Below, one piece after another: positions 11,789 to 44,687 of a stretch of DNA of 64,000 bases. Below the pieces are notes generated by a model, which had not been told where the DNA came from, ran no database searches, and saw only the letters and a list, made by a program, of their open reading frames with translations. The position numbers and the translations under genes were made by a program. The stretch comes from Candidatus Pacearchaeota archaeon (lineage in GTDB: Archaea > Nanobdellota > Nanobdellia > Pacearchaeales > UBA284): contig CP061211.1 in assembly GCA_026016245.1 (NCBI GenBank), positions 424,879-488,878 of the forward strand. Reading direction: 5' to 3'. Each line of letters opens with the position of its first letter. Position 1 is the stretch's first letter.

Positions 11789-11861
11789 GGGCCTGTGGTC
11801 TAGTGGTTACGACGCCACCCTTACAAGGTGGAGGTCCCTGGTTCGATCCCAGGCAGGCCCA
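11789..11861 (+). tRNA. tRNA-Val (anticodon UAC)
   Basis: Acceptor GGGCCUG/CAGGCCC, anticodon stem CCACC/GGUGG, loop CUUACAA, T-loop UUCGAUC. Confidence 0.85.
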
Positions 11862-11876
11862 TAAAAAGACACAAAA

Positions 11877-12563: not shown

Positions 12564-12659
12564 ACTTTATAAAGTTCGTCAGATTCATTTTTATAGGTTC
12601 ATACCTTTTTGGGGTTGTACTGGGTAGAATGACGCTAAAAATAAAATTAGCTATTAGAA

Positions 12660-25956: not shown

Positions 25957-26409
25957 ATGAGTATATTTGTGGATTTTGTTCAGTGGAGCCCTTTAGCTAG
26001 CATAATCATATTTGCTTTTGTAATAACATTCATCCTCACATTTCTGTATAAAAAATTGATCAATAAAAAAAAGATGGACGAACTAAAAGAAAAACAGAAA
26101 GAAGCAAAAGAAAAAATAAAAGAATATAAGGGTAATCCTGAAAAAATGGCAGAAATTCAGAAAGAGATGATGGAGGCAAGCATGCAGAGTATGAAATTAA
26201 CCCTAAAACCCATGTTAATCACATTCCTTCCCTTATTACTTATATTTTATGGGCTTAAAATTTTATATATGGATGCTGTAAAGGTTGGAAATATTATAGA
26301 ATGGGGGACTAATCTTCCCATAATTGGAAATGGTGCAGGTTGGCTTCTTTGTTATATTGTTTTTGGTTTTGTCTTTAGTCTGATTTTACGCAAATTATTC
26401 AAAATATAA
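25957..26409 (+). CDS. DUF106 / EMC3-like membrane protein (archaeal YidC/Oxa1-like insertase candidate)
   Basis: TM helix, charged coiled coil, two TM helices; position just after secY where DUF106 genes typically sit. Confidence 0.5.
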   Translation: MSIFVDFVQWSPLASIIIFAFVITFILTFLYKKLINKKKMDELKEKQKEAKEKIKEYKGNPEKMAEIQKEMMEASMQSMKLTLKPMLITFLPLLLIFYGLKILYMDAVKVGNIIEWGTNLPIIGNGAGWLLCYIVFGFVFSLILRKLFKI

Positions 26410-27764: not shown

Positions 27765-28643
27765 ATGCTTGAGACATTAGTTAATCCTAAAAAAGCTGAA
27801 AGACGCCCATGGGAGATGTTCTTTATAGGGGCATTATATGCTACAGTTTCACTTTTTATCGCAGATTTCCTCTTCTTGAAAAATCCTGTATTTGAAAAAC
27901 ATATCAGCATTTTAATAGTTTTTTTCACTGTCATGTTCTCCATACCTTTTTTCTTTTACATTATTAAAATTGAAGAGGAGAAAGATACAAAAATCAAAAG
28001 CGAGAAGAAACTAATTAAGGAACATGGAAAAGCTATCAGTGCATTACTTTTCTTATTCTTAGGTTATGTTGTTGCTTTTGCTTTATTATTTGCTTTAATG
28101 CCCATGGAAACGACAAGTACTAATTTTAAAATCCAAGTAGAAACTTACTGTATGGTTAATGCAAGGTTTGGTTATGAGGAATGTGTTGAAGGGCATTTAA
28201 CAGGAGATGCCACAGAACTACGTATGAAAGTACCAAGTATAAAAAATGGCATGTCCCGAGTTTCAACCATCCTTTCTAATAATTTTTATGTTCTTTTGTT
28301 TAGCCTTTTATTTTCATTCTTATTCGGAGCTGGAGCAATATTCATTCTTGCTTGGAATGGAAGTGTTATTGCAGCAGCCATAGCTATATTTGCTCGTGAT
28401 AATCTAGCACAACTTCCTTTAGGATTTTTACGTTACCTTATTCATGGATTGCCAGAGATTGCTTCTTATTTTATTGTGGCTCTTGCAGGTGGTATCATAG
28501 GGACAGCAGTAATAAGACATGAATTTGGACATGAAAAGTTTTGGCATGTTCTACAAGATTCTTTAGATCTCATAATTATCGCTCTCCTTGTTCTAATAAT
28601 CTCAGCATTTATGGAAGTTTTTTTAACCCCAGCTTTGTTTTAA
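27765..28643 (+). CDS. SpoIIM-like (DUF95) membrane protein
   Basis: LAWNGSVIAAAIA...HGLPEIASYFIVALAGG pattern. Confidence 0.5.
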   Translation: MLETLVNPKKAERRPWEMFFIGALYATVSLFIADFLFLKNPVFEKHISILIVFFTVMFSIPFFFYIIKIEEEKDTKIKSEKKLIKEHGKAISALLFLFLGYVVAFALLFALMPMETTSTNFKIQVETYCMVNARFGYEECVEGHLTGDATELRMKVPSIKNGMSRVSTILSNNFYVLLFSLLFSFLFGAGAIFILAWNGSVIAAAIAIFARDNLAQLPLGFLRYLIHGLPEIASYFIVALAGGIIGTAVIRHEFGHEKFWHVLQDSLDLIIIALLVLIISAFMEVFLTPALF

Positions 28644-28653
28644 ATAATATAAA

Positions 28654-29898
28654 ATGAAAACACAAACACAGCTGACAAAACGAACTTTCCTTTTATGGAC
28701 AGGTTTAATCCTAGCTGCCATAGGAAGCTATCTTTTCTATTTCATTATGGCTAGGATGTTAAGTGTAGAAGACTATGGGCTTCTTTATTCACTCATCGCA
28801 CTTACCTATCTTTTTACAATACCTCATGAAACTATTAGGACAGTGATATCAAAATACACAACAGAGTTTTGGGTAAAAAAAGAAAAAGGGAAGATTAAAG
28901 AATTAATGATCAAAGCAATAAAAACCATCTCTCTAATTTCAATCATTACTTTTGTGATATTTTTGCTTTTGCTTCCCTTATGGACAAAAATTTTGCACAC
29001 AAATGTATGGTCCATATCCCTAATTGGATTATCTCTATTAATCACATTCATGCTTCCGATAATTTGGGGGGTTTTACAGGGGACTAATCGTTTTGGACAT
29101 CTTGGATTAAATAATTCTGCTGAGATGGTTGTCAAACTTGCTCTTGGTATAATTTTAGTGTCCATAATAGGCTTAGGAGTTAATGGAGCTATCATAGCGA
29201 TTCCATTGTCTATTGCTGCTGCATTTTTTATTGGTTTTATCCCAATTAGAGATATAATAAAGGCAAAAAAGAAACCATTTAAAGCTGAGAAGCACCTCTT
29301 TAGATATTCTATGTCTGCCTTGATCATCTTTACCTTTTTTGTGGCTCTTTATTCAATTGATATAATCCTAGCAAGATATTTTTTCAGTCCCCTCTATGCT
29401 GGCCTTTATAGTGCAGTTTCTGTTATTAGTAAGGTTCTCTTTTTTGGATCAACAGCTATAACAAGAGTGATGTTTTCTGAGATTATTGAAAAGCATGGAA
29501 AAAAGAAGACAGAGGATAGCAGGAAAAAAAGTAGAAAAGTTTTGTTTAGATCTCTAGGCTTCCTGGCAATCATGTGCGGAATTTTCTTATTTATTGCTTT
29601 CATCTTTCCAGAATTAATTATTAATGTAGTTGTCGGTAATAGATATATTGCTGCAACACCACTTCTAAAGTACATGATGCTAGCAATGGCATTTTTTTCC
29701 TTCTCGTCATTAATTGTATTTTATAATTTATCTATTGATTGGCATAAGAAAATTACAGCAAAAATCCTTGGAAGTGTCGCATTTTTAATGATGGCCTTCC
29801 TTATTTTGTTTCATGCAAATCTGGAACAATTTGTCAAAGTAATTTTAGCCATAAATATAGGGCTTTTCCTAGCTCTTTTAACAACGTTAAAACGTTAA
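28654..29898 (+). CDS. polysaccharide biosynthesis / oligosaccharide flippase (MOP superfamily, Wzx-like)
   Basis: 414-aa polytopic membrane protein adjacent to aglB. Confidence 0.5.
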   Translation: MKTQTQLTKRTFLLWTGLILAAIGSYLFYFIMARMLSVEDYGLLYSLIALTYLFTIPHETIRTVISKYTTEFWVKKEKGKIKELMIKAIKTISLISIITFVIFLLLLPLWTKILHTNVWSISLIGLSLLITFMLPIIWGVLQGTNRFGHLGLNNSAEMVVKLALGIILVSIIGLGVNGAIIAIPLSIAAAFFIGFIPIRDIIKAKKKPFKAEKHLFRYSMSALIIFTFFVALYSIDIILARYFFSPLYAGLYSAVSVISKVLFFGSTAITRVMFSEIIEKHGKKKTEDSRKKSRKVLFRSLGFLAIMCGIFLFIAFIFPELIINVVVGNRYIAATPLLKYMMLAMAFFSFSSLIVFYNLSIDWHKKITAKILGSVAFLMMAFLILFHANLEQFVKVILAINIGLFLALLTTLKR

Positions 29899-29945
29899 AA
29901 AAGCGTCAACAAAAAGTATAAAAGTCTGGTTAATATAATCTCAAA

Positions 29946-32735
29946 ATGGAAGGAGAGGTTAAGGAAGAAATTAAAGAGGAAATCAGAGAAGAAACTAAAG
30001 AAATCAAACAAGAACCACAAAAACAACCAGAACAGCCCAAAATAGAAGAGATTACAGAAACAAAACCAAAAAGAAAACTATTTGCTAATATAAAATTCAA
30101 ACCAGATAAAAAATTCTGGATAATTCTTGCTTTAATCATACTTTTAATTGCTATCATATATCTAGGGGTTTGGATTAGAACTCAAAATATCCCTCAACTA
30201 AAAGATGTAACAACAGGCCAATATACTTTAGGTCCAGACTTAGATCCTTTCCTCTTTCTGAGACATGCTAAAGAAATTTCTGAAAACAGATTAGAAAATC
30301 CTGATATGATGAGGGCAGCACCACTTGGAGTGCAAAATTATGCTAAAACAAGTTTGATGCCATGGGCGATAGTCTTTATTTATAAAATTTTGAATATTTT
30401 TTGGGAACCACCAACAGCAACTGTTGAATTTGCTGCAATTATTGCACCAGTCATTTTTTTTGCTTTAACATTAATTGTTTTTTTCTTTTTTATAAAAAAG
30501 CTATTCTCTTTTATAACAAATAAAAGAAATGCATTAACTATAGCTTTGATTGCAACTGTTTTTTATGCTGTAATTCCACCTATGTTGCATAGAACAACAG
30601 CAGGCATTCCTGAAATTGAAAGTCTTGGCATGCTATGGTTTTGGTGTGCATTTTTATTCTTTACTTGGGCATGGCAATCAAAAAAAATTAAAAAAATAAT
30701 GCCTCTTGCAATTCTTTCTGGTATTTTTACTGGCTTAATGATTTTCACATGGGGGGGCAATAAATACATTTTTATGACATTTGCCTTAGCGTCTTTTCTT
30801 GTTTTTTTCTTTAATAAGCAAAAAAAGAAAAATTTTCTTATTTTCACTTCATGGCTTATTCCAACCTTAATTTTTGCTTTTGCTGAAAATCCTACTTTTG
30901 AAGCTCTTACAGTAATATCTGATACTGGTTTTGCTTCAATAATATTTTCATTATTGCTTGTTGACATGATAGTTTTTAATACAAAATTAAAAAAAATAAG
31001 AGAAAAAATAAAATTACCAGAAAGTGTAATAACCATGATTATATTAATAGTTATTGGATTTATAGGTCTTTTAATAATTAATCCAAATTTAATTTCACAA
31101 ACTGCTTCTAAAGTTGTAGAAGGTTTGCTTTATCCTTTTGGCAGAGGCAGAGTGAGCTTAACAGTTGCAGAGAACAAAGCTCCTTATTTTGTTGAGGTTT
31201 TTGGAAGCTTTAGTTATCTTTTTTGGCTTTTTTTCTTTGGCACTTTACTCTTATTTTATGAAGCAACAAAACATTTTGATAATAAAAATAAAATTCTTCT
31301 AAACAGCTTTTTTATTATTTTTATGATAACTTTTATTTTTAGTAGAATTTCACCTCAAAGCTTGCTTAATGGAGAAAATTTCATATCAAAGTTTTTATAT
31401 TTTGGTGGCCTAATTATTTTTGCTTTTGTCTTGCTTTATATTTATATTAGTGCTTATGTCAGAAAAGAATATAAGATATCAGAAAATTTCAAAAACATCA
31501 ATTTTTCTTATATTCTGGCTCTTGCATTTATATTCTGGATGATTGTATCAATGAGGGGAGCAATAAGACTTTTTTTTATAATAAGTCCGGCCTTGATTAT
31601 TGCATCAGCCTTTTTACCAATTAAGCTAGCTGAATATAGTTTTAAAACAAAAGATAAATTATACAAGATACTTTTGTGGTGTGGTGTTATTTTAGTAGTT
31701 GTATGCTTGATTATAACTTTTATAAATTATACAAAAAGTACAGCTCAAAGTGCAAAATATACTATTCCTGGACCTTATTATCAACAATGGCAAAAGGCAA
31801 TGGAATGGGTTAGAGAAGAAACTCCAAAAAATTCAATTTTTGCTCACTGGTGGGATTATGGTTATTGGGTGCAAACTTTAGGAGAAAGACCCACTGTTTT
31901 AGATGGAGGTCATGCATATCATGGAGGCTTCTGGAATTATTTAATGGGAAGACATGTTTTATGTGGACAAAATGAAAATGAAGCTCTAGAATTTTTATAT
32001 GCACATAATGCTTCATATCTTTTAATTGATTCAACTGAAATAGGTAAATACAGTGCTTATGGCGGTATTGGTTCTGACGAAAGTGGTTATGATAGATTAA
32101 GTTGGATAAATGCTTTTGTCCTTGATCCTACACAAACACAGGAAACAGGAAATGAAACAGCTTATGTTTATGTTGGTGGAACTATGTTTGACCAAGATGT
32201 TGAATGGGAGGGGCAGATTTTCCCAAGAGGAAAGGCAATAATAGTTGGCTTCTTACTAGTCATAGACAAAGAAACTGGAGAGATAAATGAAATTAAAAAC
32301 ATAGTTTATTATAATGAAAAACAATACAGAATTCCAATAAAATATGTCTACATTAATGGGGAATTAAAAGAGCTGGAAAAGAAAGATGAAAAATTAATGA
32401 ATGGGGCTCTTTATCTCATTCCAAGTGTTGGTCAGCAAATTAATAGTATGGGGGCAGCCTTATATTTAAGTGAAAAAGCATTAAATGCACAATGGGTCAA
32501 GCTTTACTTATTTGATGAAAGTGAAAATTTTGAGCTTGTTCATAGCCAAGATAATTTATTTGTTGAACAACTAAAACAGAATAATATCACTATAAGTGAT
32601 ATCATATATGCTGGTGGCATTCTCGGACCAATAAAAATATGGAAAATAAATTATCCTGAAAACTTTACCATTCCAGACAAAAAATTAAAAAGGTATTTAC
32701 AGCCAAAAAGCGATTTGCCTTTTGATTTATGGTAA
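29946..32735 (+). CDS. aglB: oligosaccharyltransferase AglB (STT3 family)
   Basis: WWDYGYW motif (FAHWWDYGYWVQTLGERPTVLDGG) preceded by a large multi-TM domain. Confidence 0.85.
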   Translation: MEGEVKEEIKEEIREETKEIKQEPQKQPEQPKIEEITETKPKRKLFANIKFKPDKKFWIILALIILLIAIIYLGVWIRTQNIPQLKDVTTGQYTLGPDLDPFLFLRHAKEISENRLENPDMMRAAPLGVQNYAKTSLMPWAIVFIYKILNIFWEPPTATVEFAAIIAPVIFFALTLIVFFFFIKKLFSFITNKRNALTIALIATVFYAVIPPMLHRTTAGIPEIESLGMLWFWCAFLFFTWAWQSKKIKKIMPLAILSGIFTGLMIFTWGGNKYIFMTFALASFLVFFFNKQKKKNFLIFTSWLIPTLIFAFAENPTFEALTVISDTGFASIIFSLLLVDMIVFNTKLKKIREKIKLPESVITMIILIVIGFIGLLIINPNLISQTASKVVEGLLYPFGRGRVSLTVAENKAPYFVEVFGSFSYLFWLFFFGTLLLFYEATKHFDNKNKILLNSFFIIFMITFIFSRISPQSLLNGENFISKFLYFGGLIIFAFVLLYIYISAYVRKEYKISENFKNINFSYILALAFIFWMIVSMRGAIRLFFIISPALIIASAFLPIKLAEYSFKTKDKLYKILLWCGVILVVVCLIITFINYTKSTAQSAKYTIPGPYYQQWQKAMEWVREETPKNSIFAHWWDYGYWVQTLGERPTVLDGGHAYHGGFWNYLMGRHVLCGQNENEALEFLYAHNASYLLIDSTEIGKYSAYGGIGSDESGYDRLSWINAFVLDPTQTQETGNETAYVYVGGTMFDQDVEWEGQIFPRGKAIIVGFLLVIDKETGEINEIKNIVYYNEKQYRIPIKYVYINGELKELEKKDEKLMNGALYLIPSVGQQINSMGAALYLSEKALNAQWVKLYLFDESENFELVHSQDNLFVEQLKQNNITISDIIYAGGILGPIKIWKINYPENFTIPDKKLKRYLQPKSDLPFDLW

Positions 32736-32754
32736 AAATATATAAAAATATAAA

Positions 32755-33756
32755 ATGATTAGCCAAGTTTTAATTACTGTTTTGTATCTTATTTTTGCAT
32801 TTGTAGTTACATTGCTATTAATAAAATGGTGGATTTCTATAGCTAAAAAAAATAAATTGCAAGGAAAGGATATGAATAAGTACAAAAAACCACTTGTTGC
32901 AGAAGCAGGAGGAATAGCTGTTGTTCTTGCTATTGTTTTTACATTATTCTTATATATATTTTTCAAAACTTTTGTATTAAAGACAGAAACACACTTTGTT
33001 GAAGTTTTTGCATTAATTGTCACTCTCCTTTTAGCTTGTTTTATTGGTTTTATAGATGATATTCTTGGATGGAAAAAAGGTATAAGGGGGTGGAAAAGAA
33101 TTTTAATGACAATTCCAATTGCAATTCCATTAATGGTTATAAATGCAGGCCATAGCACAATGTCTGTTCCTTTTTTAGGTTCTGTTGATTTTGGCCTTGT
33201 CTATCCACTTGTAATTGTTCTTGTTGGGATTATTGGGGCAACAAATGGTTTTAACTTGCTGGCTGGCTATAATGGACTTGAGGCTGGTCTAGGAATAGTA
33301 ATTTTTGCTACTCTAGGAGCAATTGCTTTTTTTGGAGGAAATGTCTGGCTAGCTTTGATAGCTGGGATAATTATTTTCTCTTTACTAGGTTTTCTAATAT
33401 TTAATCAATATCCAGCAAAAATATTTCCAGGTGATTCTTTAACATATAGTATAGGAGCTCTAATAGCTGTTTTTGCAATACTTGGAAATATGGAAAAAGC
33501 AGCTTTCTTGCTTTTTATCCCATTCATTATTGAAGGCATATTAAAAGCAAGGTCAAAATTTAAAGCTGAAAATTTTGGAAAGCCGAATAAAGATGGCAGT
33601 CTGGAGGTGCCTTATAAAAAAACCTATAGCTTGACGCATGCTTCAATTTTGTTTTTGAAAAAAGTAAAAAAGAAAGCTTATGAAAAAGATGTTGTAAGGC
33701 TACTTTTGATAATTGAATTAATTATAGCAGTTCTGATTATGGCAAGCTATGTATAA
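32755..33756 (+). CDS. UDP-sugar:dolichyl-phosphate sugar-1-phosphate transferase (GT4/MraY-like, AglH-like)
   Basis: Polytopic membrane protein with IGFIDDILGW motif. Confidence 0.75.
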   Translation: MISQVLITVLYLIFAFVVTLLLIKWWISIAKKNKLQGKDMNKYKKPLVAEAGGIAVVLAIVFTLFLYIFFKTFVLKTETHFVEVFALIVTLLLACFIGFIDDILGWKKGIRGWKRILMTIPIAIPLMVINAGHSTMSVPFLGSVDFGLVYPLVIVLVGIIGATNGFNLLAGYNGLEAGLGIVIFATLGAIAFFGGNVWLALIAGIIIFSLLGFLIFNQYPAKIFPGDSLTYSIGALIAVFAILGNMEKAAFLLFIPFIIEGILKARSKFKAENFGKPNKDGSLEVPYKKTYSLTHASILFLKKVKKKAYEKDVVRLLLIIELIIAVLIMASYV

Positions 33757-33909
33757 ATTCATGAAATTTCTAGCTTATTTCTTATTATAATAGCAAGAAT
33801 TACTAATTGAGATTATTCTTACATCATTATGCTTATCTAATTTTGATTTAATAAAAGATTACGAATTTAAAAAGATTAGTTTTATAAATTTATAAAGCAG
33901 CAGTTTAAT

Positions 33910-34905
33910 ATGAAAATTTGGATTGATATAACCAACACACCCCATGTTCTGTTCTTCAAGCCAATTATAGAAATGCTGAGAAAAGAAAGGCATGAAGTAA
34001 TAATAACCGCGAGAAAACATGCACAAACTCTCGGCATGTTAGATTTCTTTCATCTTCCTTATGTCACAATAGGAAAACATGCTGGCAAGTCTTTGATAAA
34101 AAAGGCATTTAACACTATTCCCAGAGTTTCTTTATTAAAAAAGTTTATAAGAAAAGAAAAGCCGGATTTGGGAATATGCCACCAGTCTCCTTATCTTGTC
34201 CAGGCATGCTTTTTATTGGGTATAAAAAGTATTTATATTTTTGACAATGAAACAGCAGCTTTGCAGAATTTGCTTTCCATACCTTTTGCTTCTAAAGTGT
34301 TATGTCTAGGAGCAATAAAGAAAAAAAGGCTTTTTGGAAAAAAGCTTATTAAATATCCTGGAGTAAAAGAAGCTGTTTACTTAACTAGCTGGAAATTTAA
34401 CAAAAACATATTTAGGAAGTTGGGTCTAAACAAAAACAAAAAGATAATTGTTTTGAGACCAGAGCCTTATACTGCGGCCTATTATAAGAAAAATAAAGAT
34501 ATATTATTGAAATTAGTAAAAAGCATGCCAAAAGAATGGCAGGTTGTGTTAATAGCAAGAAGTGAAAAACAAAAAAAAGAATACAAAAAAATAAATCCGA
34601 ACTTGATAATACCCAAAAAAGCAATTGATGGCCCTTCCTTAATTTACTATGCAGACCTCGTTATAGGTGCGGGCGGCACAATGAACAGAGAAGCTGCTGT
34701 TTTAGGCACACCAGTAATAAGTACTTACCAGGAAAAATCGCTTGCAGTTGATGAATGGCTTATAAAAAAGGGTTTAATGATTCATTCTCTAGATCCTTCT
34801 CTTAGCTTGATAAAAAAAGTTATGGGAAGGAAAAAGAAGAGCATGCTAAAAGAAGGCAAGCAAGCTCTAGATCTTATAATTGGAGAGATAGAAAAAACTA
34901 GATGA
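33910..34905 (+). CDS. DUF354 family protein (predicted GT-B fold)
   Basis: MKIWIDITNTPHVLFFKPII N-terminus typical of DUF354. Confidence 0.5.
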   Translation: MKIWIDITNTPHVLFFKPIIEMLRKERHEVIITARKHAQTLGMLDFFHLPYVTIGKHAGKSLIKKAFNTIPRVSLLKKFIRKEKPDLGICHQSPYLVQACFLLGIKSIYIFDNETAALQNLLSIPFASKVLCLGAIKKKRLFGKKLIKYPGVKEAVYLTSWKFNKNIFRKLGLNKNKKIIVLRPEPYTAAYYKKNKDILLKLVKSMPKEWQVVLIARSEKQKKEYKKINPNLIIPKKAIDGPSLIYYADLVIGAGGTMNREAAVLGTPVISTYQEKSLAVDEWLIKKGLMIHSLDPSLSLIKKVMGRKKKSMLKEGKQALDLIIGEIEKTR

Positions 34906-34943
34906 ACCCCCTCGCCCTAGAGGCATGTATCATATCATAAAAA

Positions 34944-35912
34944 ATGTACAAAAAGAAAAAAATTTTATTTGTTTATAGAGATTTTTTCTCTTTTGTAAAA
35001 AGAGATTTTGAAATATTAGATAGCCAATACAATGTAACCTCTCTTCATGCTACAAAAAACTTGCCTCTGTTAATTTTCAAGCTTCTGGCTTTAGTTCCAA
35101 AAAATGATCTTATTTTTGTATGGTTTGCTGATTGGCATGCATTTCTTGCAACTTTATCTGCCAAACTTTTCAGAAAAAAAATAGTTGTTATAGTGGGGGG
35201 TTATGATGCTGCTTGTGTGCCTGAAATTAACTATGGTGCTTTCTGTTCCTGGTGGAAAAGCAAGGTAGTAAAATGGACTCTCAAGAATGTTACTATAGCT
35301 TTAGCTGTTTCAAAACATGTAGAAGAAAATATGTTAAAGTATTCTAAACCAAAAGGGGCAGAGGTCTTATATCATGGATTTGATTATGCAAAAATTAAAC
35401 TGAGACCTCAAAACAAAAAAGAAAATTTAGTAATATCAGTTGGAACTGCAAAGATTAAGAGGCCAGACATTTTTATTAAAGTGGCAAAATATCTTCCTAA
35501 AATTAAATTTCTTCTTGTAGGATCTATTACTAAAGAAATTGAACAATTGCAGAAAATAGCTCCTTTAAATGTAAAATTTACTGGTCTTTTATCTTTTGAT
35601 AAACTGCTTAAAAAATATCAAAAAGCTAAAGTATATGTTCAGACATCAGCCTATGAAGGCTTTGGATGCGCGCTAGCAGAAGCTATGCTTTGTGAATGTG
35701 TTCCGGTTGTAACAAAAAAAGCTGCCTTGCCAGAAGTTATTGGAAATACTGGTTTTTGTGTTCCTTATGGAAATGCGGAAGCAACTGCAGAAGCAATTAA
35801 AAAAGCTTTAATATCGAATAAAGGAAAAGTGGCTAGGGAAAGAATTAAGAAATTTTTTCCTATTTCAAGAAGAAAGAAAAAATTAATTGAAGTTATAGAA
35901 AAACTAAAATGA
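34944..35912 (+). CDS. glycosyltransferase family 4 (GT-B)
   Basis: VYVQTSAYEGFGCALAEAMLCECVPVVT E-x7-E motif. Confidence 0.75.
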   Translation: MYKKKKILFVYRDFFSFVKRDFEILDSQYNVTSLHATKNLPLLIFKLLALVPKNDLIFVWFADWHAFLATLSAKLFRKKIVVIVGGYDAACVPEINYGAFCSWWKSKVVKWTLKNVTIALAVSKHVEENMLKYSKPKGAEVLYHGFDYAKIKLRPQNKKENLVISVGTAKIKRPDIFIKVAKYLPKIKFLLVGSITKEIEQLQKIAPLNVKFTGLLSFDKLLKKYQKAKVYVQTSAYEGFGCALAEAMLCECVPVVTKKAALPEVIGNTGFCVPYGNAEATAEAIKKALISNKGKVARERIKKFFPISRRKKKLIEVIEKLK

Positions 35913-36589
35913 AAAATAAATTGAAAACAGTTATTAAAAAAACACCTTTAATCAATAATGTGGCAAGAATCTTATTAAATTATATAAAAACTATTTCATT
36001 CCCTGGATCTAAAGAATATTGGGAAGAAAGATATGCTAGTGGAGGAACTTCGGGTGCTGGTTCTTATGGAAAACTTGCAAAATTTAAAGCCGACGTCATA
36101 AATTCGTTTGTAAAAAATAATAAGATTAATTCAGTTATAGAGTTTGGTTGTGGAGATGGCAATCAATTATCTTTATTTGATTTTCCTGCTTATATTGGTT
36201 TGGATATTTCAAAAACTTCAATAGAATTATGTATGAAACATTTTAAGAAGGATAGAACGAAAAGTTTCTTTTTGTATGATTCTGAGTATTTCAAAGACAA
36301 CCACCATATCTTCAAAGCAGAGCTCGCTTTATCCTTAGATGTCATTTATCATCTTGTTGAAGAGAATATATTTGAGCTTTATATGAAACATTTATTTTCA
36401 ACTTCTGATAAATTTGTTATTATTTACTCTTCTGATACTAGTAATAAGCAAAAAGTTCACCAAAGGAATAGACAATTTACGAAATGGGTAAAAATTAATT
36501 TTGCCAAATGGAAATTAATAAAAAAAATCAAAAATAAATATCCTAATGAATCAGGTGCTGATTTCTTTATTTACAAGAAGGCAAAGTAA
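35909..36589 (+). CDS. class I SAM-dependent methyltransferase
   Basis: VIEFGCGDGNQ motif I. Confidence 0.65.
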   Translation: MKNKLKTVIKKTPLINNVARILLNYIKTISFPGSKEYWEERYASGGTSGAGSYGKLAKFKADVINSFVKNNKINSVIEFGCGDGNQLSLFDFPAYIGLDISKTSIELCMKHFKKDRTKSFFLYDSEYFKDNHHIFKAELALSLDVIYHLVEENIFELYMKHLFSTSDKFVIIYSSDTSNKQKVHQRNRQFTKWVKINFAKWKLIKKIKNKYPNESGADFFIYKKAK

Positions 36590-36690
36590 AGAAAGGATTT
36601 GGATTTGAAGCAAAAACCAGTTTAAACAAAGGATTATAAAATTATTTCCCTTAGAAGAAAGAAAAAAATTATTGGAATTATTGAAAAAAT

Positions 36691-37584
36691 TTGAAAATGA
36701 AACGAGTTTTTATTATAATAGTTAACTGGAATGGTAAAGATTTGCTAAAAAGATGTTTGAATTCCTTAAGAAAGAATACAGGATATCCTTCGTATAAAGT
36801 TATTATTGTTGATAATGGATCAACAGACGGAAGTCAGGAAATAATTAGAAAGAAATTTCCTTGGGCAGATTTAATCTCTTTAGAAAAAAACTAGGGGTTT
36901 GTTAAAGGAACTAATATTGGAATCAAACGTGCTTTAACAAAATATAATGCTGATTATGTTTTTCTTTTGAATAATGATACTGAAATTATTCAAAAAAACT
37001 GGTTAAGAGATATGGTCAAAATTTTAGATTCTTACCCTAAAGGTGGTATTGCTTGTTGTAAACTGCTTTCTCTAGATAAAAAACAACAAATAAGTGCTGC
37101 ACATTCCATACCAATTGGGAGATCTCCAGAAATTTTAGCAAAAGATGTTGTTGAAATTGATTGGGCCATAGGAACTGCATTTCTAATTAAAAGAAATGTT
37201 ATTAAAAAAATTGGTTTATTTGATGAAAATTTTTCGCCAGCTTATGGAGAAGAATCAGATTACTGCTGGAGAGCAAGAAAATCAGGTTATAAAATTTTAT
37301 ACAATCCTTTCGTATCTATAATACATTATGGGGCAGCAACTGCAAAAAAATTTGATCCAAATTATATTTATTTTATTAAACAAAGAAATCGAATAAGGAA
37401 TATACTGCTAAACTACCCAACATCTTGGTTAATAATAAGACTCTTAGCTGAAATTAAAGTTATATTAAGAGCGCTCTTTGCCATGAAAATTTATTTACTT
37501 ATAAAAGCTTATTGGGCCAACATAAGAAATCTAAAAGAAATTCTGGAAAAAAGAAAAAAAAGAACTGCAAAAATCTTGTATTAA
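36691..37584 (+). CDS. glycosyltransferase family 2, interrupted by an in-frame TAG at 36892-36894
   Basis: IIIVNWNGKDLL...VDNGSTDGS then EKN*GFVKGTNIGI...LLNNDTEII, all in one frame; the stop sits where ENxGF normally has a sense codon. Confidence 0.7.
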
Positions 37585-38210
37585 ATTTTATATTTCGATG
37601 CCTTAATGATAAATTGATAACCAAACAATGGGGGATTAGTTTTGGTAATAATCTTTCCTGCTTTTCCAAAGAATCTTGATAGATTTGTTGTCATATCTAT
37701 TTTTTCGATTACAAAACCCGCTTTTTCAATTAAACTTTTGGCTGTTTTAAAAGTAAAAAATCTTAGATGTGTTTTATCTAAAAGCCCCATTTCTTTGTAT
37801 TCCCACCTACCAAATAAAAGTTTAAGGCGTATTACCCAATTAGCTACATTTGGAATAGAACAGACAATGTAACCAGCATTTTTAAGATATTTTTTAAGTT
37901 TAATAATAACATCCAACGGCTGTCTTAAATGCTCCAAAATGTCACCAAAAATGATAATATCAAAATATTTTTTTGGAAAGGGTAGTTTGGTTAGAATTTC
38001 AATGTCCCCAACAATTACTTTTTTACAGTATTTTCTAGCTAATTTGGCAGCTTGCCTATCTTTTTCTATTCCAACAACTTCACAGTCATTTTGTGTTAGT
38101 CTCTTGTCTATTTGACCAGTAGCACATCCAACATCTAAAACTTTTTTATTCTTACCAACTAATTGAATCATCTTCCTATGGGATAAAGTAAATTGGCTAT
38201 ATTTTCTCAT
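37581..38210 (-). CDS. class I SAM-dependent methyltransferase
   Basis: VLDVGCATGQ motif I, DIIIFGDILEHL. Confidence 0.75.
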   Translation of the reverse strand: MRKYSQFTLSHRKMIQLVGKNKKVLDVGCATGQIDKRLTQNDCEVVGIEKDRQAAKLARKYCKKVIVGDIEILTKLPFPKKYFDIIIFGDILEHLRQPLDVIIKLKKYLKNAGYIVCSIPNVANWVIRLKLLFGRWEYKEMGLLDKTHLRFFTFKTAKSLIEKAGFVIEKIDMTTNLSRFFGKAGKIITKTNPPLFGYQFIIKASKYKI

Positions 38211-38396
38211 TTTAAACTCCTTAATCTTTTAATTAATAAACTTTGGCTTTTAGTTTTAGTACTTGTATCTTCTTTTTTATTTCAATCTGTCAGTCGATTC
38301 TTCTATATTTTTAATAGGTCTGTATCCTTTTTAACAAAATTTTATCCAAGATACTCTTATTATTATAAACAACAATTATTGATATCATCTTTTATA

Positions 38397-39767
38397 TTAT
38401 CTTACAATTAAGGGTTTACCCGACAATATTTTCACTAAGGCTATTAACAAACGTTTTGGAATTTTTAAAGGATTTTTTAAAGTATTCTTTATTACTATTT
38501 TTAGTTTCTCGTTTCTGAAAAGTAAAAATAGCTTATATATTTCATCTCTTGTTAACTTTTCTGATAAAATTATTGCATCATTATGACTTTCGCCAAAATT
38601 CACATTTAAAGAATTCCAATTCATATCTTCACTTACTAAATTCCTTGCTTTTGCATATTCCCAAACAGGTGTTCCAGGAAATGGCGTCAAAACATATATA
38701 GCAAAGCTAGCTAATCGATTTTCTTTGATAAATTTAAGAGTCCGCAGGATATCTTCTTGGCTTTCTTTTGGCGAACCGATAATAAAACTAGCACCAATCT
38801 TTATTCCATACTTTTTAAATATATTAATAGCATTTATGTGATCCTTTATGGTTATATTTCTTCCTTTGAGATATTCTAAAGTAGTAGGCGAACCCGACTC
38901 TAGCCCCATACTAACAGACTTCACGTTCATTTGCTTTAATAACCAACTTACTTCATTATTAACTAAATTTGATCTAACACTGCAAGTAAAATTCACTTTA
39001 CCTAAAATGCCCTCCTTCTTCAGTAGTTCCAATATCTGTTTTAATCTTCTTTTATCGGCTATAAATATGTCATCCCAAAAGGCTATATTTTTTACTTTAT
39101 ATTTACTAATAAGGTATTTTATTTCGTTAACAACATATTCGGCTGAAAAAAATCTAACATTATCCCAAAAGCGAGATGAGGCACAAAAAGTACACCTATA
39201 GGGACATCCTCTTGAAGTAAACATAGAGGTAGACTTTTTAATTGTAAATAGATCTCTCGCTGGCATTGGTATCCTATCTAGAGGTTCTATTGGCTTTCTT
39301 TTTTTCGTTATAATAAGTTCACCATTTCTTCTAAAAACAATTCCGTCAATCTTCTCCAGTTCATCCCCATCAAAACACCCCTTCTCTTCAAAAAGATTGA
39401 AAAGTTCGATGATTGTTTCTTCGCCTTCACCGATAACGCCCACATCCATATCCCTACTTAATGTGGATGGCAATGCAGAAATATGTACGCCACCAATAAT
39501 AACAGGTATGTCATGTTTTTTGGCAATTTTAGCATACTCAATTGCTTTGTTATAGTTCTGGGTTACTGATGTAATACCAATAATATCTGGCTTAAAATTA
39601 TTTATCTCCTGTTTAATATCTCTATCCACAATTTTGAATTTAATGTGATTGAAGCCAAACTCTTTCCTTAGCGAACTTGCTAGGTAGCCCAAACCTAATG
39701 GTGGAATAAAAGCTTCAATCTTTTTCGTTATATCCATTGCATTTATAAACATAATTTTGGGTTTCAT
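38397..39767 (-). CDS. B12-binding domain radical SAM protein
   Basis: TSRGCPYRCTFCAS (CxxxCxxC) with N-terminal B12-binding-like region. Confidence 0.8.
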   Translation of the reverse strand: MKPKIMFINAMDITKKIEAFIPPLGLGYLASSLRKEFGFNHIKFKIVDRDIKQEINNFKPDIIGITSVTQNYNKAIEYAKIAKKHDIPVIIGGVHISALPSTLSRDMDVGVIGEGEETIIELFNLFEEKGCFDGDELEKIDGIVFRRNGELIITKKRKPIEPLDRIPMPARDLFTIKKSTSMFTSRGCPYRCTFCASSRFWDNVRFFSAEYVVNEIKYLISKYKVKNIAFWDDIFIADKRRLKQILELLKKEGILGKVNFTCSVRSNLVNNEVSWLLKQMNVKSVSMGLESGSPTTLEYLKGRNITIKDHINAINIFKKYGIKIGASFIIGSPKESQEDILRTLKFIKENRLASFAIYVLTPFPGTPVWEYAKARNLVSEDMNWNSLNVNFGESHNDAIILSEKLTRDEIYKLFLLFRNEKLKIVIKNTLKNPLKIPKRLLIALVKILSGKPLIVR

Positions 39768-39934
39768 TTTATTGACATTCTCCTAATTTTTAAAGAAAAT
39801 CTTAGATCTGTGAAACCTTCTTGTCCAGCAATGGAACTTATTCTAACTTTAGGTTCTATCATATTAAATATTTCGGGAACTATTTTAACAAAAGCTCTTA
39901 CATTTTCTTTCATTTTTCTTTATTGTTTAATTTT

Positions 39935-41449
39935 TTATTTGGGTTTAAGATACTGAACCAATTTAAAATCTTCTTTTGTTATTCCTTTAATCAACCACAT
40001 AACAACAAAATAGATTATAACTGCAAGCAAAATCTCAGTTATACCAAGCAGCAAATTAAGCCTGACAAAGTAATTATAAACTATCAAAAAGCCAAGCATG
40101 ATAAGGCTTGCAGCTAAAGGCTTCCATAAAGATGTTGCCCTTGGCACTATCCTTAATTTTCTTTTTGATGAAATCGCCAGAGCACCAAAATAAAAATATC
40201 TGCTAATAAAAGTGGCAAGAGCAGCTCCTATTAAACCATAAGCAGGCCCTATTGTGATAAAATAACGAATAAAGAAGTAATTTAAAACAATATTAAGCAC
40301 TGTTGCAATAACAATAATTTTTGCAGGAAATTGGGGCTTTTCTTTTGAATAAAATAAAGTGCTAAAGTATCTGCCAGTTGCTATTTCAATAATTAAAAAA
40401 GCAAGTAGAGCAGAAGCAATATAAATAGGTATTCTATATTCAGCTGGAACATAAGCAGCTCCATAAACAACTTTTAGAATCCATGGAGCAAGAGCTGCAA
40501 AACCAAAAGCGCATGGAAATGAAAAAATAGCTGAATAATGAAATGCTTTTTTAAATGCTCGCTCAAGTCTCTGGCCTTTAATTTGAGTAAAGACTGGAAG
40601 TAAAACATCAGCCATAAATATAAGCCCTGCTACAGCGCCAACAATAGCAAAAATAGCTGTATAGAAACCAACAAATTCAGAAGGAAGAAATGCTCCTAAC
40701 ATCAATCTATCTATATAAATAAAAAAAACCCCTGTTATGCTACCAATCGAAAGATAGCCAAAAAACTTGAGAAGTCTTTTTTTATCAATTTTAATCAAAG
40801 GCCCTTTCAAAAGAAAATAATAGCTTTTGCTTATAATAAAAAAACAGAGTAAGAAAGCAACAAACGCTGCTATGCTCAAAGCAATAAAAACAGAAGGAAC
40901 ACTTTTTATTGTGACAAGAAATGCTATAACAAGACCTATTCTAGTTATCTGAAAAATTATTTCTTTTACAGCTACAAGTTTTACTTTTTGGATTGCATAA
41001 AATAGTGAAGAAAAGAAACCAAGCAATGCAGTAGCAAAAAGATATACTGAGCCTATTTGTAAAGGCAAGATTAGAGCTTCTTTATGAAAAGCATATAATG
41101 AAAGAGGTCTTGCAATCAAAAATAGTGCGAGGGCAAAAGCTCCAGCAATCAATAGTTTAAAATTCAGCAAAAATCTTGTATAAGATCTAGCTTTAGTTTT
41201 TTGCTTTTTGCCAAGAGCCTCTGAAGTGTATCTTATTAAAGTGGAATTAATACCAAGGTCCGCAAAGGTTATTAAAATGAGAATTACAGCAAGAGCCAAG
41301 GAATAAATACCAAAAAGTTCTGGAAAGAGCATTCTTGCTACAATAATTGTGAAGATGAATCCACCTAACTTTGCAATGGCAGTTGCAGTAATTTGATAAA
41401 GAGAATTACGCAAGACTTTTTGTGTAAGGCTTGGCTTTTTTGGTTTCAT
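39935..41449 (-). CDS. polysaccharide biosynthesis / flippase family membrane protein (MOP superfamily)
   Basis: 504-aa polytopic membrane protein. Confidence 0.5.
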   Translation of the reverse strand: MKPKKPSLTQKVLRNSLYQITATAIAKLGGFIFTIIVARMLFPELFGIYSLALAVILILITFADLGINSTLIRYTSEALGKKQKTKARSYTRFLLNFKLLIAGAFALALFLIARPLSLYAFHKEALILPLQIGSVYLFATALLGFFSSLFYAIQKVKLVAVKEIIFQITRIGLVIAFLVTIKSVPSVFIALSIAAFVAFLLCFFIISKSYYFLLKGPLIKIDKKRLLKFFGYLSIGSITGVFFIYIDRLMLGAFLPSEFVGFYTAIFAIVGAVAGLIFMADVLLPVFTQIKGQRLERAFKKAFHYSAIFSFPCAFGFAALAPWILKVVYGAAYVPAEYRIPIYIASALLAFLIIEIATGRYFSTLFYSKEKPQFPAKIIVIATVLNIVLNYFFIRYFITIGPAYGLIGAALATFISRYFYFGALAISSKRKLRIVPRATSLWKPLAASLIMLGFLIVYNYFVRLNLLLGITEILLAVIIYFVVMWLIKGITKEDFKLVQYLKPK

Positions 41450-41882: not shown

Positions 41883-43475
41883 TTATTCTTTAGTTATTTT
41901 TCTAAGAATATCTGCAAAAGCTGGGCGAGTTATGAAAACACCAACTGTTATTCCAAGTAATGTAGTTACAACAAAACCTCGCAATAGGCCTGCTCCTGCT
42001 GACCATAATGGCAAGAGTGCTAGAGCTGTTGTTGCATAAGCAGCGAAAATCATGAAGAATGCTCTTTTGATTCGCTCCTTGATACTGAACTGTTTTGATA
42101 CTCTTGTCTCATCTATCATAATAATCTGATCATCAACCCCTGTTCCTAAAGCAGCTATAATTCCTGCTATAGATGCTAAATCAAGATTCCATTTGATTAC
42201 TGCTGCTATTGCCAATACAAGAAGAGCTTCTGAGATTAAGGTTATTATAACAGGGAGGACAAGTATAAATTTTCTATATCTCAAATAAATAATTAGACAA
42301 ACAGCTAAAAAAACCGCTATAGCAACAATAAAAACATTTTTTGTAAACTCTCTGCCTAATAGAGGAGAGACAGAATCTAATTTTACTATCTCTAATTTGA
42401 ATGGTAAAGATCCTGTGATTAAAACTGTCTGTAGTTTCTTCATATTATCTTGAGCTGCTTCATAAGCTTGAGCTCTTGTTTCTCCTACACCGCTTCCTGT
42501 TATTGCAATCCTTGTAGTTTCCTGTCCTTTTAAGCCTGCATCTATTAGTAAAGTATCAACAAGATTGTCATCCAAGTAAAGATCAAGAGTCTCATTCAGA
42601 TAACGTTCTCCATCAGATACATTTTCTTCTAATCCTGCTGTGAGTTCAGCATGTTTTTTTGCAGCTTGCTCTGAAAGATGAATTTCAAAATGGAACCTAC
42701 ATGCCTGGCCGCCTTCTATTTCTCCGCATTGTTCTATGTAAGCACAAGAAGCATCATTTCTACAAACAAAAGTAATATCATTCTGGCCGCCTACAAAAAC
42801 TGTCTTATTACCTATCCTAGCCTCAAACTTTCCTTGTTTTCCTATTAAATCTTGCAATTCTTGTGGTGTGGCTCCTGCCAGTTCGACCATCATAAATCTT
42901 TCTCCAGCTAGATCAGAGACTTCCTTTACATTAATATCAGTTAAACCATAAACATTCAAACGATAGCGGACAGTTTCAAGAAGACTGGCCATTTCTTGGG
43001 CATTAAGAGACCTTTCAGGCTTAACTAAAGCACGAGCGCCTCCTTGCAAGTCAAGTCCCATCTTTAATCTTGTTATGGATATCTCAGAGACTGTGATGCC
43101 AGTATCAGAAGTTGTAAGGAAAACATATTCTTGCTTGTCTGTTAGTATAGTTATTTTCTCTTTTTGCTCCTCTTCATTCCCATTTTTAGTTTTATTAGTA
43201 GTTTCATTAGTCTTATTCTGATTAGGAGGCTTAGGTTCAGGAGCTGCAGGGAGATATGCTACAGCTTCACAATAATCTTCTATGCTATTTATCTGCTTGC
43301 CATTTATTTCTTTAATGATTTCCCCAATTGCTATGCCTGCTTCTGCTGCAGTTGAATTTGCTTGAATCCCTTTGATAATAACTTTTCCAGAAAAGTATTG
43401 CCAATTTATTATGAAGAGAATTGCTACTATGAATAAAATAATTAGCAACCAGATTCTCCAACCTATTTTTACCAT
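41883..43475 (-). CDS. secD: protein-export membrane protein SecD with PDZ-like insert
   Basis: C-terminal 6-TM SecD/SecF domain; N-terminal GKVIIKGIQANSTAAEAGIAIGEIIKEINGKQINSIEDY PDZ-like segment. Confidence 0.75.
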   Translation of the reverse strand: MVKIGWRIWLLIILFIVAILFIINWQYFSGKVIIKGIQANSTAAEAGIAIGEIIKEINGKQINSIEDYCEAVAYLPAAPEPKPPNQNKTNETTNKTKNGNEEEQKEKITILTDKQEYVFLTTSDTGITVSEISITRLKMGLDLQGGARALVKPERSLNAQEMASLLETVRYRLNVYGLTDINVKEVSDLAGERFMMVELAGATPQELQDLIGKQGKFEARIGNKTVFVGGQNDITFVCRNDASCAYIEQCGEIEGGQACRFHFEIHLSEQAAKKHAELTAGLEENVSDGERYLNETLDLYLDDNLVDTLLIDAGLKGQETTRIAITGSGVGETRAQAYEAAQDNMKKLQTVLITGSLPFKLEIVKLDSVSPLLGREFTKNVFIVAIAVFLAVCLIIYLRYRKFILVLPVIITLISEALLVLAIAAVIKWNLDLASIAGIIAALGTGVDDQIIMIDETRVSKQFSIKERIKRAFFMIFAAYATTALALLPLWSAGAGLLRGFVVTTLLGITVGVFITRPAFADILRKITKE

Positions 43476-43485
43476 TTTAGCTTTC

Positions 43486-44496
43486 TTAACTTATATTTTT
43501 CTTTTTGCACCACCATTTAAGTATCGAAGCATTTCCAAGCCATGTTGAGATCAGGTCAATAAAAAGCCCTGCTGACAAGATGAAGAAAATTTGTTTAAGT
43601 ACAGAGGATTGGGCTACAAAAAATCCTATAAGAACAGCAATTAAAGAGGTTATTGTCATTGTCAAGCCTGTACGAGCTGCTGATTTTATTCTATTGTTTA
43701 GCTCTCCCTCTCCTCTTCTCTTGATAAGTTTTGTTGTTAACATTACATCTGTATCAACACTATAACCAACAAGCATTAAGAAAGCTGCTATGCCTGCTGT
43801 TGATATATGAAATCCAAATAAATTAGCTATGGTTAAAGCTCCTACAATATCCATGACTGCAGCAAGTATTACAGCTAATGAAGGAACAATTTTTCTAAAA
43901 ATAATGAAAACAACTAGGCCCATGATTACAAATGCTATAGCCAAAGCAATAATCATCTGTTTGTAGAAACTCTCACTTAAACTAGCTCCACTTATCTCTA
44001 GACTTGAATTTGAACTATCTAATTGATAACCTAGAAATTCTTCAAGAGAGCTGGTTGCAGTTTCAGAATCAGATTTTGTCTCAACTACAATACCTATCTG
44101 CTTTCTTGTTGTTATATCCTCTAATTTCCTTACATTAATATCTTCTAGCTTGCTTGCCAAAGTATTTTCCATATTCTGGAGATCAATCTCTTCTTCAGTA
44201 TAGATTGTAATGACTGTTCCTCCTGTCAAAGTCACATCTTTAAACATAATATCACCATGTTGGGCATAAAAAAAGCCAACATAAGCAAAACAAGCAATAA
44301 GAATGATAATAGATATTAGAAGAAGTTTTTTATAATTCTTGTCATACCATTCAGAACCACTAAGCTTTGGTTTTTTAGGTTTTTCTTCTTTCTCTATTTT
44401 CTTTTCTAGCTCTTGTTTTGGTTTTTCTTCCTTTTTCTCTTCTTTTATCTCTGGTTTCCCTTCCCTTCTCTCCTCTGGTTTTTCTTCCTCGTTCAT
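43486..44496 (-). CDS. secF: protein-export membrane protein SecF
   Basis: C-terminal 6-TM SecD/SecF domain, directly upstream of secD. Confidence 0.75.
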   Translation of the reverse strand: MNEEEKPEERREGKPEIKEEKKEEKPKQELEKKIEKEEKPKKPKLSGSEWYDKNYKKLLLISIIILIACFAYVGFFYAQHGDIMFKDVTLTGGTVITIYTEEEIDLQNMENTLASKLEDINVRKLEDITTRKQIGIVVETKSDSETATSSLEEFLGYQLDSSNSSLEISGASLSESFYKQMIIALAIAFVIMGLVVFIIFRKIVPSLAVILAAVMDIVGALTIANLFGFHISTAGIAAFLMLVGYSVDTDVMLTTKLIKRRGEGELNNRIKSAARTGLTMTITSLIAVLIGFFVAQSSVLKQIFFILSAGLFIDLISTWLGNASILKWWCKKKNIS

Positions 44497-44570: not shown

Positions 44571-44687
44571 GCGCCAGTAGTCTAATGGTAGGACATTAGC
44601 CTTCCAAATAAGGGCAAGCCCTTATCAACCCAAATGCTTACCTAATAAAGAAAGCTAATGATCTGGGTTCGAGTCCCGGCTGGCGCA
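44571..44687 (+). tRNA. intron-containing tRNA, most likely tRNA-Gly (anticodon UCC); ~45-nt intron at 37/38
   Basis: Acceptor GCGCCAG/CUGGCGC; anticodon stem UUAGC (44596-44600) pairs with GCUAA (44654-44658); loop CUUCCA+A; intron ~44608-44652 with internal hairpin. Confidence 0.7.

Follow-up and report, generated by a model that had tools for sequence, protein, structure and literature searches.

Gene content of the locus

The genes described here are centered on aglB, which encodes an STT3-type oligosaccharyltransferase, in the metagenome-assembled genome of an uncultured Pacearchaeota archaeon (GenBank assembly GCA_026016245.1). They lie in a 64,000-nucleotide stretch of contig CP061211.1 (positions 424,879 to 488,878 of the forward strand), which is referred to below as the window and has a guanine plus cytosine (GC) content of ∼31% (31.5%). 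Gene identities were assigned from open reading frame (ORF) calls and from Pfam and NCBIfam profile scans of the window proteins. Ten glycan-related genes are found within 13.7 kb, and housekeeping genes are present on both sides. Such clustering is far beyond chance.

An earlier note on this DNA had listed the genes between positions 27765 and 41449, and each gene that it named was located as given (Table 1). Two entries need to be qualified: The GT2 glycosyltransferase gene is interrupted by an in-frame TAG codon, and MOP1, the first of two putative flippases, is a borderline member of its family. The note also had the cluster followed by SecDF. Both SecD and SecF are present, but the gene for a 138-aa membrane protein intervenes after MOP2. 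By hydropathy, DUF354, GT4, the methyltransferases MT1 and MT2, and the radical S-adenosylmethionine (SAM) enzyme have no hydrophobic segments and are predicted to be soluble, whereas the SpoIIM-like protein, MOP1, MOP2, AglB, and AglH are polytopic.

Table 1. Features of the aglB locus, in window coordinates
Feature	Coordinates	Strand	Profile match or motif
SpoIIM-like polytopic membrane protein; leads the conserved core	27765–28643	+	PF01944
MOP1, 414 aa; MOP/Wzx-like putative lipid-linked-glycan flippase; core	28654–29898	+	PF13440, borderline
AglB (STT3-type oligosaccharyltransferase), 929 aa	29946–32735	+	PF02516; WWDYGYW
AglH-like polyprenyl-phosphate N-acetylhexosamine (HexNAc)-1-phosphate transferase	32755–33756	+	PF00953, 3.8e-35
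DUF354, soluble enzyme with a GT-B fold; opens the variable island	33910–34905	+	PF04007, 3e-73
GT4-type (Glycos_transf_1, GT-B) glycosyltransferase	34944–35912	+	PF00534, 8.5e-23; PF13692, 5e-21
MT1, weak class I SAM methyltransferase	35909–36589	+	Methyltransf_23, 26.8, just below threshold
GT2 glycosyltransferase with one in-frame TAG	36691–37584	+	PF00535, 9.2e-23, across the stop
MT2, clear class I SAM methyltransferase (Methyltransf_23/11, MetW-like)	37581–38210	−	Pfam, 3.9e-17
Class B (B12-binding) radical SAM enzyme	38397–39767	−	PF02310, 1.2e-17; PF04055, 1.1e-25
MOP2, strong Wzx/MOP-family flippase	39935–41449	−	PF01943, 4.3e-31
Membrane protein between MOP2 and SecD, 138 aa	41446–41862	−	no Pfam match
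SecD (N-terminal PDZ domain) and SecF; conserved island flank	41883–44496	−	Pfam SecD_SecF_C, PDZ_6

AglB and AglH

Judged by its sequence, AglB is a divergent but genuine oligosaccharyltransferase. The PF02516 profile matches residues 99–353 with 36.3 bits (cutoff 24.5), and TIGR04154 matches at 5.6e-32, yet remains under the cutoff for that subfamily. A crude hydropathy scan places ∼13–14 hydrophobic segments before residue 600. The WWDYGYW motif, at residues 635–641, lines up with its counterparts in yeast STT3 and in Pyrococcus furiosus AglB. HMMER alignments also superpose HRTTAGIPEIE on SRSVAGSYDNE and LTVAENK on ASVSEHQ of yeast STT3, with AGIPEIE and TVAEN matching the acidic metal-binding motifs of the transmembrane domain. 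A candidate for the acidic motif of the first loop (GPDLDPFLFLR, residue 99) was assigned by inspection outside the HMMER alignment, and a candidate DK-like motif (GYDRLSWI, residue 714, with Arg for Lys) was assigned by eye in a region that no alignment covers. In STT3-type enzymes, the DK/MI motif forms the pocket for the Ser or Thr at position +2 of the sequon. AglB is thus predicted to transfer a lipid-linked glycan to Asn.

The neighboring AglH is matched by PF00953 with 121.7 bits and has ∼8 hydrophobic segments. Its matches to the MraY and WecA equivalogs of NCBIfam are weak, and all fall under the cutoffs.

A search for relatives of AglB yielded 551 proteins, mainly from metagenome-assembled genomes of Pacearchaeota, Woesearchaeota, and Nanoarchaeota, with a best identity of 66%. 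From these, 80 loci (L001–L080), most of which carry the same three labels, were kept. All proteins of the window were searched by tblastn against the 80 loci, each with up to 10 kb of flanking sequence, and the counts of related loci given below refer to this set. AglH adjoins AglB in 74 of them. Together with the alignments to yeast STT3, this arrangement bears out the claim of the earlier note that the region is an N-glycosylation locus centered on AglB.

A conserved core and a Sec-side flank

The same string of genes recurs in the related loci: SecY, a YidC-like gene, the prefoldin gene PfdA, eIF2B(−), the SpoIIM-like gene, in some cases MOP1, then AglB and AglH. The SpoIIM-like gene is present in 74/80 loci, as is AglH. 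The order of AglH and AglB differs among clades, but the core set stays together. In the window, the SpoIIM-like, MOP1, AglB, and AglH genes are co-directional, with gaps of 10–47 bp, and they are presumably co-transcribed.

The two flippase candidates differ in how clearly they can be classified. MOP1 has ∼11 hydrophobic segments in a crude hydropathy scan and scores 25.1 with PF13440 (cutoff 23) and 25.5 with PF01943, which is under the cutoff of 28.2; a homolog adjoins AglB or AglH in 21 of the loci (tblastn, 1e-5). MOP2 scores 108.8 bits with PF01943 and 69.5 bits with PF13440. MOP1 therefore appears to be a borderline, and MOP2 a clear, member of the MOP superfamily, and glycan flipping is a predicted activity for both.

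Homologs of MOP2 (38%–50% identity) are found beside the 138-aa gene and SecDF in three relatives (L001, L007, and L022); the homolog of the 138-aa protein in L001 has a weak YdjM match. SecDF is also near AglB in all three of these loci and in two others (L019 and L030). These arrangements suggest an ancestral AglB–SecDF neighborhood into which glycan islands were inserted. The position of SecDF relative to AglB varies: in the window, L001, L007, and L022 it is no more than 10 kb downstream, and SecF–SecD is directly upstream in L019 (7224–10001) and L030 (1–540).

The SpoIIM-like protein, the first of the core genes, is better conserved than AglB itself, with identities of up to 81%. Its gene stays beside AglB and AglH in Pacearchaeota and Woesearchaeota genomes (the 74 loci noted above) even where the order of those two genes is swapped. 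Invariant polar residues include H87, C129, C140, W197-N198, an H227-G-x-P-E231 motif, D265, and E284. An AlphaFold2 (AF2) model of the protein has a predicted local distance difference test (pLDDT) score of 88.5, and no meaningful structural neighbor of this model was found in the PDB. The SpoIIM-like protein may be a previously unrecognized component of the N-glycosylation machinery.

A replaceable glycan island

Six genes (DUF354, GT4, MT1, GT2, MT2, and the radical SAM gene; 33910–39767) occupy the space between AglH and MOP2. Homologs of these and of MOP2 are distributed very unevenly among the related loci: MT2 in 16, GT2 in 13, GT4 and MOP2 in 8 each, DUF354 in 1, and MT1 in none. The closest relative, L001, whose AglB is 63% identical, retains AglH at one end of the island and MOP2, the 138-aa gene, and SecDF at the other, and between them carries GT2, a different B12-binding radical SAM gene (27% identical), split Alg13/Alg14, a methyltransferase, and GT4. 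L022 and L007 have the same flanks, yet their island contents are different again. The six genes thus constitute an exchangeable glycan island whose flanks are conserved. This core and island layout is the organization of characterized agl clusters and of the variable N-glycosylation gene clusters known from haloarchaea (PMC11407970). Base composition gives no signal of horizontal transfer, as the island genes have 27%–33% GC and the window 31.5%.

The site that DUF354 occupies in the window holds split Alg13-like (PF04101) and Alg14-like (PF08660) genes in L001 (14376–15312, − strand). Alg13/Alg14 is the eukaryote-type pair that adds the second sugar, and such a pair is also found in L022 and L047. 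Among the 80 loci, DUF354 occurs in one and Alg13/Alg14 in three to four, too few to assess whether their distributions are complementary.

Glycosyltransferases, MT1, and DUF354 of the island

The GT2 gene has a single in-frame TAG at 36892–36894 (codon 68) and no other lesion, so that the assembly does not contain an intact ORF for its GT-A domain. Homologs carry L, K, R, Y, F, or M at this position. Recoding of the codon was considered and rejected because TAG is the normal terminator of SecY, the eIF2B-like gene, the VIT gene, and other ORFs of the window. The PF00535 match runs across the stop. Either a point nonsense change has recently made the gene a pseudogene, or the TAG is a strain variant or an error of assembly. 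The MT1 ORF overlaps the stop of GT4 by 4 bp, and its match to the pseudaminic-acid-associated methylase model TIGR03587 is under the cutoff at 1.2e-5.

DUF354 matches the PF04007 model over its full length. A nearly invariant His-Val follows strand 1 of the protein, where the sequence TNTPHV stands in place of a GGxGGH glycine-rich loop. In MurG, Alg14, and Agl24, the GGH motif lies after strand 1 (PMC8993221). A profile search against PDB sequences returned nothing significant. In a fold search, nucleoside diphosphate (NDP)-sugar 2-epimerases ranked first and closer than transferases. The missing loop and this ranking do not support the identification of DUF354 as Agl24. The family is absent from the relevant literature that we found. 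Elsewhere, DUF354 homologs sit in glycan operons. One of them is 6.5 kb downstream of an AglB–AglH pair, and a genuine Epimerase_2 gene is present in the same locus, which argues against a redundant epimerase role. DUF354 may be an epimerase-like enzyme or else a transferase, perhaps the one that adds the second sugar.

The radical SAM enzyme and its methyltransferase partner

The radical SAM protein of the island combines a B12-binding domain (PF02310, residues 14–122, 64.2 bits with a cutoff of 32.1) with a radical SAM core (PF04055, residues 184–347, 91.2 bits) that carries the cluster motif CPYRCTFC (CxxxCxxC) at residues 188–195. This architecture identifies it as a class B enzyme. The nearest solved structure is that of the methyl-coenzyme M reductase (MCR) glutamine methyltransferase QCMT (9CCB, 1.7e-17), and AprD4, CysS, and TokK are also matched. 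QCMT is a B12-dependent radical SAM C-methyltransferase, and the most common chemistry of class B enzymes is methylation of an unactivated carbon (PMC12931638). By analogy with QCMT and with this common chemistry, methylation is a plausible activity of the window enzyme.

Its closest relatives form a tight family with identities of 57%–79%, which includes a protein from Beckwithbacteria, a bacterium of the candidate phyla radiation (CPR), at 59%. Twelve independent genomic contexts of orthologs (58%–79% identity) were long enough to be judged (L081/82, L083/84, L085–L091, L095, and L096). All 12 are surface-glycan loci, and they come from CPR bacteria, Gram-negative bacteria, and archaea. Neighboring genes include GT2, GT4, Polysacc_synt flippases, Wzy_C, and Rml (rhamnose-pathway) genes, and on two Gram-negative contigs the ortholog is found among LpxD, LpxI, Kdo kinase, and GT9 heptosyltransferase genes.

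In most of these contexts, a class I methyltransferase is adjacent or fused to the radical SAM enzyme. Three proteins are fusions of the two (P0069, P0074, and P0108). A Glyco_tranf_2_5 (GT2_5) gene follows the radical SAM gene, separately or fused to a methyltransferase, in L085, L089, L090, L091, L095, and L096, and in four of these (L089, L091, L095, and L096) a GT2_5–methyltransferase fusion comes directly after it. In the closest relatives, a GT2 of the type found in the window is often next after the cassette of radical SAM and GT2_5 genes. Through the fusions, the radical SAM enzyme, a methyltransferase, and a glycosyltransferase are linked as a single functional unit. MT2 of the window is related to such partners: Along its whole length it shares 35% identity with the N-terminal domain of the fusion of methyltransferase and radical SAM enzyme in L083, and it is 44% identical to a methyltransferase of L081 and 38% identical to the GT2_5–methyltransferase fusion of L091. 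MOP2 is only ∼26% identical to the flippases adjacent to the radical SAM genes of L095 and L096 and has no detectable similarity to those of L081–L088.

A glycan-tailoring role for the radical SAM enzyme and MT2 is therefore well supported, as the earlier note had proposed. We suggest tentatively that a B12-dependent radical SAM enzyme and a methyltransferase, together in some cases with GT2_5 or GT2, form a horizontally mobile glycan-tailoring module that is distributed among CPR bacteria, Gram-negative bacteria, and archaea, and whose radical modification (for example, C-methylation of an unactivated sugar carbon) ends up on N-linked glycoproteins in this archaeon. This proposal in its entirety is possible rather than probable.

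Beyond this family, genes for B12-binding radical SAM enzymes as a class recur downstream of aglB. There are 21 in 540 kb downstream versus none in 610 kb upstream. Of the 45 loci whose downstream sequence extends to at least 8 kb, 18 have such a gene. If every match is counted, including second and third copies and shorter alignments, the total is 27 (26 in related loci plus the one in the window), and these genes fall into ∼15 subfamilies at 40% identity. A metagenome scan for loci with the radical SAM gene returned seven, four of them orthologous, which are too few for statistics.

Several individual cases were also recorded. One clade (L032, L036, L037, L044, L045, L046, L060, and L080) shares another subfamily of B12-binding radical SAM enzymes (at least 60% identical) encoded 2–7 kb downstream of AglB–AglH. 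Two or three such genes are present in L080, L046, L060, and L078. In L090 (ENA ERZ27256827 k141_3116349), positions 10001–12949 encode a 70%-identical radical SAM enzyme with a methyltransferase and Glyco_tranf_2_5. This cassette lies within co-directional ORFs without Pfam or PHROG matches except for weak HNH endonuclease hits. No match was found in cultured phage genomes, and PHROGs gave nothing beyond these weak hits. L090 may be a virus or other mobile element carrying a glycan-tailoring cassette.

A putative pathway and its alternatives

Taken as a whole, the region is probably an N-glycosylation locus of a Pacearchaeota (DPANN) archaeon that consists of a conserved core and a replaceable glycan island. 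A pathway can be proposed from these genes, in which the order of the steps and the sugar substrates are provisional. AglH would place HexNAc-1-phosphate on dolichol phosphate at the cytoplasmic face of the membrane. The soluble enzymes DUF354, GT4, and GT2 (the last disabled by its TAG in this assembly) would then extend the lipid-linked glycan. One or more of its sugars would be modified in the cytoplasm by the soluble MT1, MT2, and radical SAM enzymes, most likely with the class I methyltransferases methylating O or N atoms and the radical SAM enzyme methylating an unactivated carbon. The finished glycan would be flipped by MOP1, MOP2, or both, and AglB would move it onto Asn sequons of proteins leaving via the Sec machinery. 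Sec genes are present on both sides of the locus. That the island makes the same glycan that AglB transfers is suggested by the adjacency of their genes.

Several observations weigh against this reading. The earlier note had linked the radical SAM and methyltransferase genes to AglB, and co-conservation with aglB is not seen for this radical SAM enzyme, MT1, or DUF354: radical SAM-like proteins in 23 of the 80 loci are paralogs with identities of 26%–33%, no ortholog is found beside any of the aglB genes, and MT1 and DUF354 are almost or entirely absent from the set, as noted above. Orthologs of the radical SAM enzyme also occur in bacteria without AglB, so the cassette is not specific for N-glycans and could feed another glycoconjugate. 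The DUF354 fold search favors epimerases over transferases. As for a methylated glycan, the idea remains plausible, but the radical SAM enzyme is under the cutoff of every NCBIfam family. Its best score is 144.3 bits with BchE (cutoff 481), followed by 130 (cutoff 600), 127 (578), and 124 bits (360), and it does not qualify as BchE, PhpK, HpnJ, QCMT/MJ0865, HpnR, KedN5, or AprD4. It is also almost as similar to the non-methylating AprD4, BchE, and HpnJ as to QCMT. Finally, GT2_5 is absent from the window, and GT2 is convergent to the radical SAM and MT2 genes and carries a stop codon. The module may be decaying here.

One alternative that these points raise is that the island, from DUF354 to the radical SAM gene and perhaps including MOP2, makes a different surface glycoconjugate, such as a glycolipid or a secondary polysaccharide, which AglB does not transfer, and that the site is an insertion hotspot for glycan genes. 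The AglB-less bacterial contexts of the radical SAM orthologs are Wzx/Wzy-type and lipopolysaccharide (LPS)-core loci, the island has its own flippase candidate in MOP2, apart from MOP1 of the core, and its genes are not co-conserved with aglB. A gap of 154 bp separates DUF354 from AglH. This alternative is nevertheless unlikely. The scanned parts of the window revealed no Wzy, WaaL, or other polymerase or ligase, and AglH, which belongs to the core string with AglB, is the only initiating phosphosugar transferase nearby. Moreover, MOP2 stays with the SecDF flank in relatives that have other islands, and variable islands of glycosyltransferase and methyltransferase genes beside aglB are the usual layout of characterized archaeal agl clusters. 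Variable N-glycosylation gene clusters are described in a review (PMC11407970).

The signs of decay could be taken further, with the island being a partly degraded cassette of horizontal origin in which GT2 is a pseudogene, GT2_5 has been lost, the radical SAM and MT2 genes are remnants, and only a short core glycan is made. The TAG in GT2 falls at a conserved position, the GT2_5 gene that follows the radical SAM gene in six other loci is missing, and the GT2 gene that is convergent here is co-directional in L081. However, DUF354, GT4, MT1, MT2, and the radical SAM gene are all full-length, intact ORFs, and the nearest relatives of the radical SAM protein match it at 79% identity and 100% coverage. 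A single stop in GT2 with a Pfam match across it is also consistent with an error in the sequencing or consensus, or with a change that happened very recently, and we regard extensive decay as quite improbable. Less credible still, and by a wide measure, is that the radical SAM enzyme and the methyltransferases belong to an unrelated pathway, for example one that modifies RNA, lipids, or cofactors, and that chance placed them beside the glycosylation genes. The best family scores of the radical SAM enzyme are with BchE, PhpK, HpnJ, and MCR glutamine methyltransferase, all of them enzymes that do not act on glycans, and the best named matches of MT2 are MetW and UbiG, but all of these scores are far under the family cutoffs. 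The 12 glycan contexts, and the fusions that join methyltransferase to radical SAM enzyme and glycosyltransferase to methyltransferase, point away from an unrelated pathway, and the N-glycosylation locus with a replaceable island remains the preferred interpretation.

Comparison with known systems

Characterized archaeal N-glycosylation systems include the Haloferax volcanii aglB cluster, with its methyltransferase AglP and flippase candidate AglR, and the AglH/AglB pathway of Methanococcus. The AglH–Agl24–AglB system of Sulfolobus and general features of agl clusters have also been described (PMC8993221, PMC11407970). Like agl clusters, the locus combines AglB with a PF00953 transferase, GT2, GT4, SAM methyltransferases, and a MOP-type flippase candidate, and its gene content beside aglB varies between close relatives. 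It differs from characterized clusters and pathways in its DPANN host, in the SpoIIM-like protein of the core, in the B12-binding radical SAM enzyme and DUF354 of the island, neither of which is known to have a characterized agl counterpart, and in being bracketed by SecY and YidC-like genes on one side and SecDF on the other. The locus thus falls into a known category, that of glycosylation clusters linked to aglB and carrying a variable island. Its added features are the uncharacterized cross-domain module of radical SAM enzyme, methyltransferase, and glycosyltransferase and the SpoIIM-like partner in the core. No report tying aglB to radical SAM enzymes in archaea was found in the open-access literature, and a search for B12-dependent radical SAM enzymes in O-antigen loci returned nothing relevant.

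Three other groups of systems resemble parts of the locus. The class B enzymes QCMT, AprD4, CysS, and TokK share with the radical SAM enzyme a B12-binding Rossmann domain at the N terminus and, after it, a radical SAM core that contains CxxxCxxC. The similarity is remote, and the context here is surface-glycan loci rather than MCR, antibiotic, or tetrapyrrole pathways. Bacterial Wzx/Wzy O-antigen or capsule loci and LPS-core loci hold orthologs of the window enzyme (58%–67% identity). In contrast to those loci, AglB is the only consumer of lipid-linked glycans seen in the scanned parts of the window, no Wzy or ligase accompanies it there, and the host is archaeal. Likeness to Alg7–Alg13/Alg14, AglH–Agl24, and MurG is seen in the AglH-like initiation and in the split Alg14-like and Alg13-like genes of the L001 island. 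DUF354 has its His-Val at the place of the GGH motif of MurG and Agl24 (PMC8993221) and lacks the glycine-rich loop.

The locus provides a map of a core of SpoIIM-like protein, flippase, AglB, and AglH beside the Sec machinery, with a strain-variable glycan island attached. To our knowledge, N-glycosylation in DPANN archaea has not been characterized experimentally. Their cell surface probably mediates attachment to host cells. The locus also points to a tight and widely transferred family of B12-dependent radical SAM enzymes with methyltransferase and glycosyltransferase partners, which probably acts on surface sugars. If this hypothesis is true, then cobalamin-dependent radical chemistry joins the repertoire of protein-glycan tailoring, and a cobalamin requirement is implied in an organism with a much-reduced genome. 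Such a DPANN host may have to scavenge cobalamin.

Flanking genes and other features

Upstream of the locus are a string of ribosomal-protein genes, SecY, a YidC/EMC3-like insertase, prefoldin alpha, and an eIF-2B-like gene. Downstream are tRNAs, 5S rRNA, ribosomal proteins, and RNA polymerase subunit D. The insertase is a 150-aa EMC3/TMCO1-like (YidC/Oxa1-type) protein encoded directly after SecY (25957–26409, + strand), and it has the same place in 56/80 related loci. With the insertase, prefoldin, AglB, and SecDF, the region is a membrane-protein biogenesis neighborhood. In SecD (41883–43475, − strand), PDZ_6 matches residues 33–73 (1.4e-7), ahead of the periplasmic and transmembrane parts. 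Lys/Glu-rich extensions of low complexity are present at the start of both SecF and AglB.

No RNA element was detected within the locus by Rfam or tRNA scans. In the space between SecF and the gene that follows, a tRNA of 117 nt (44571–44687, + strand; 59 bits) is called by Rfam but not by ARAGORN. This RNA is probably an intron-containing archaeal tRNA.

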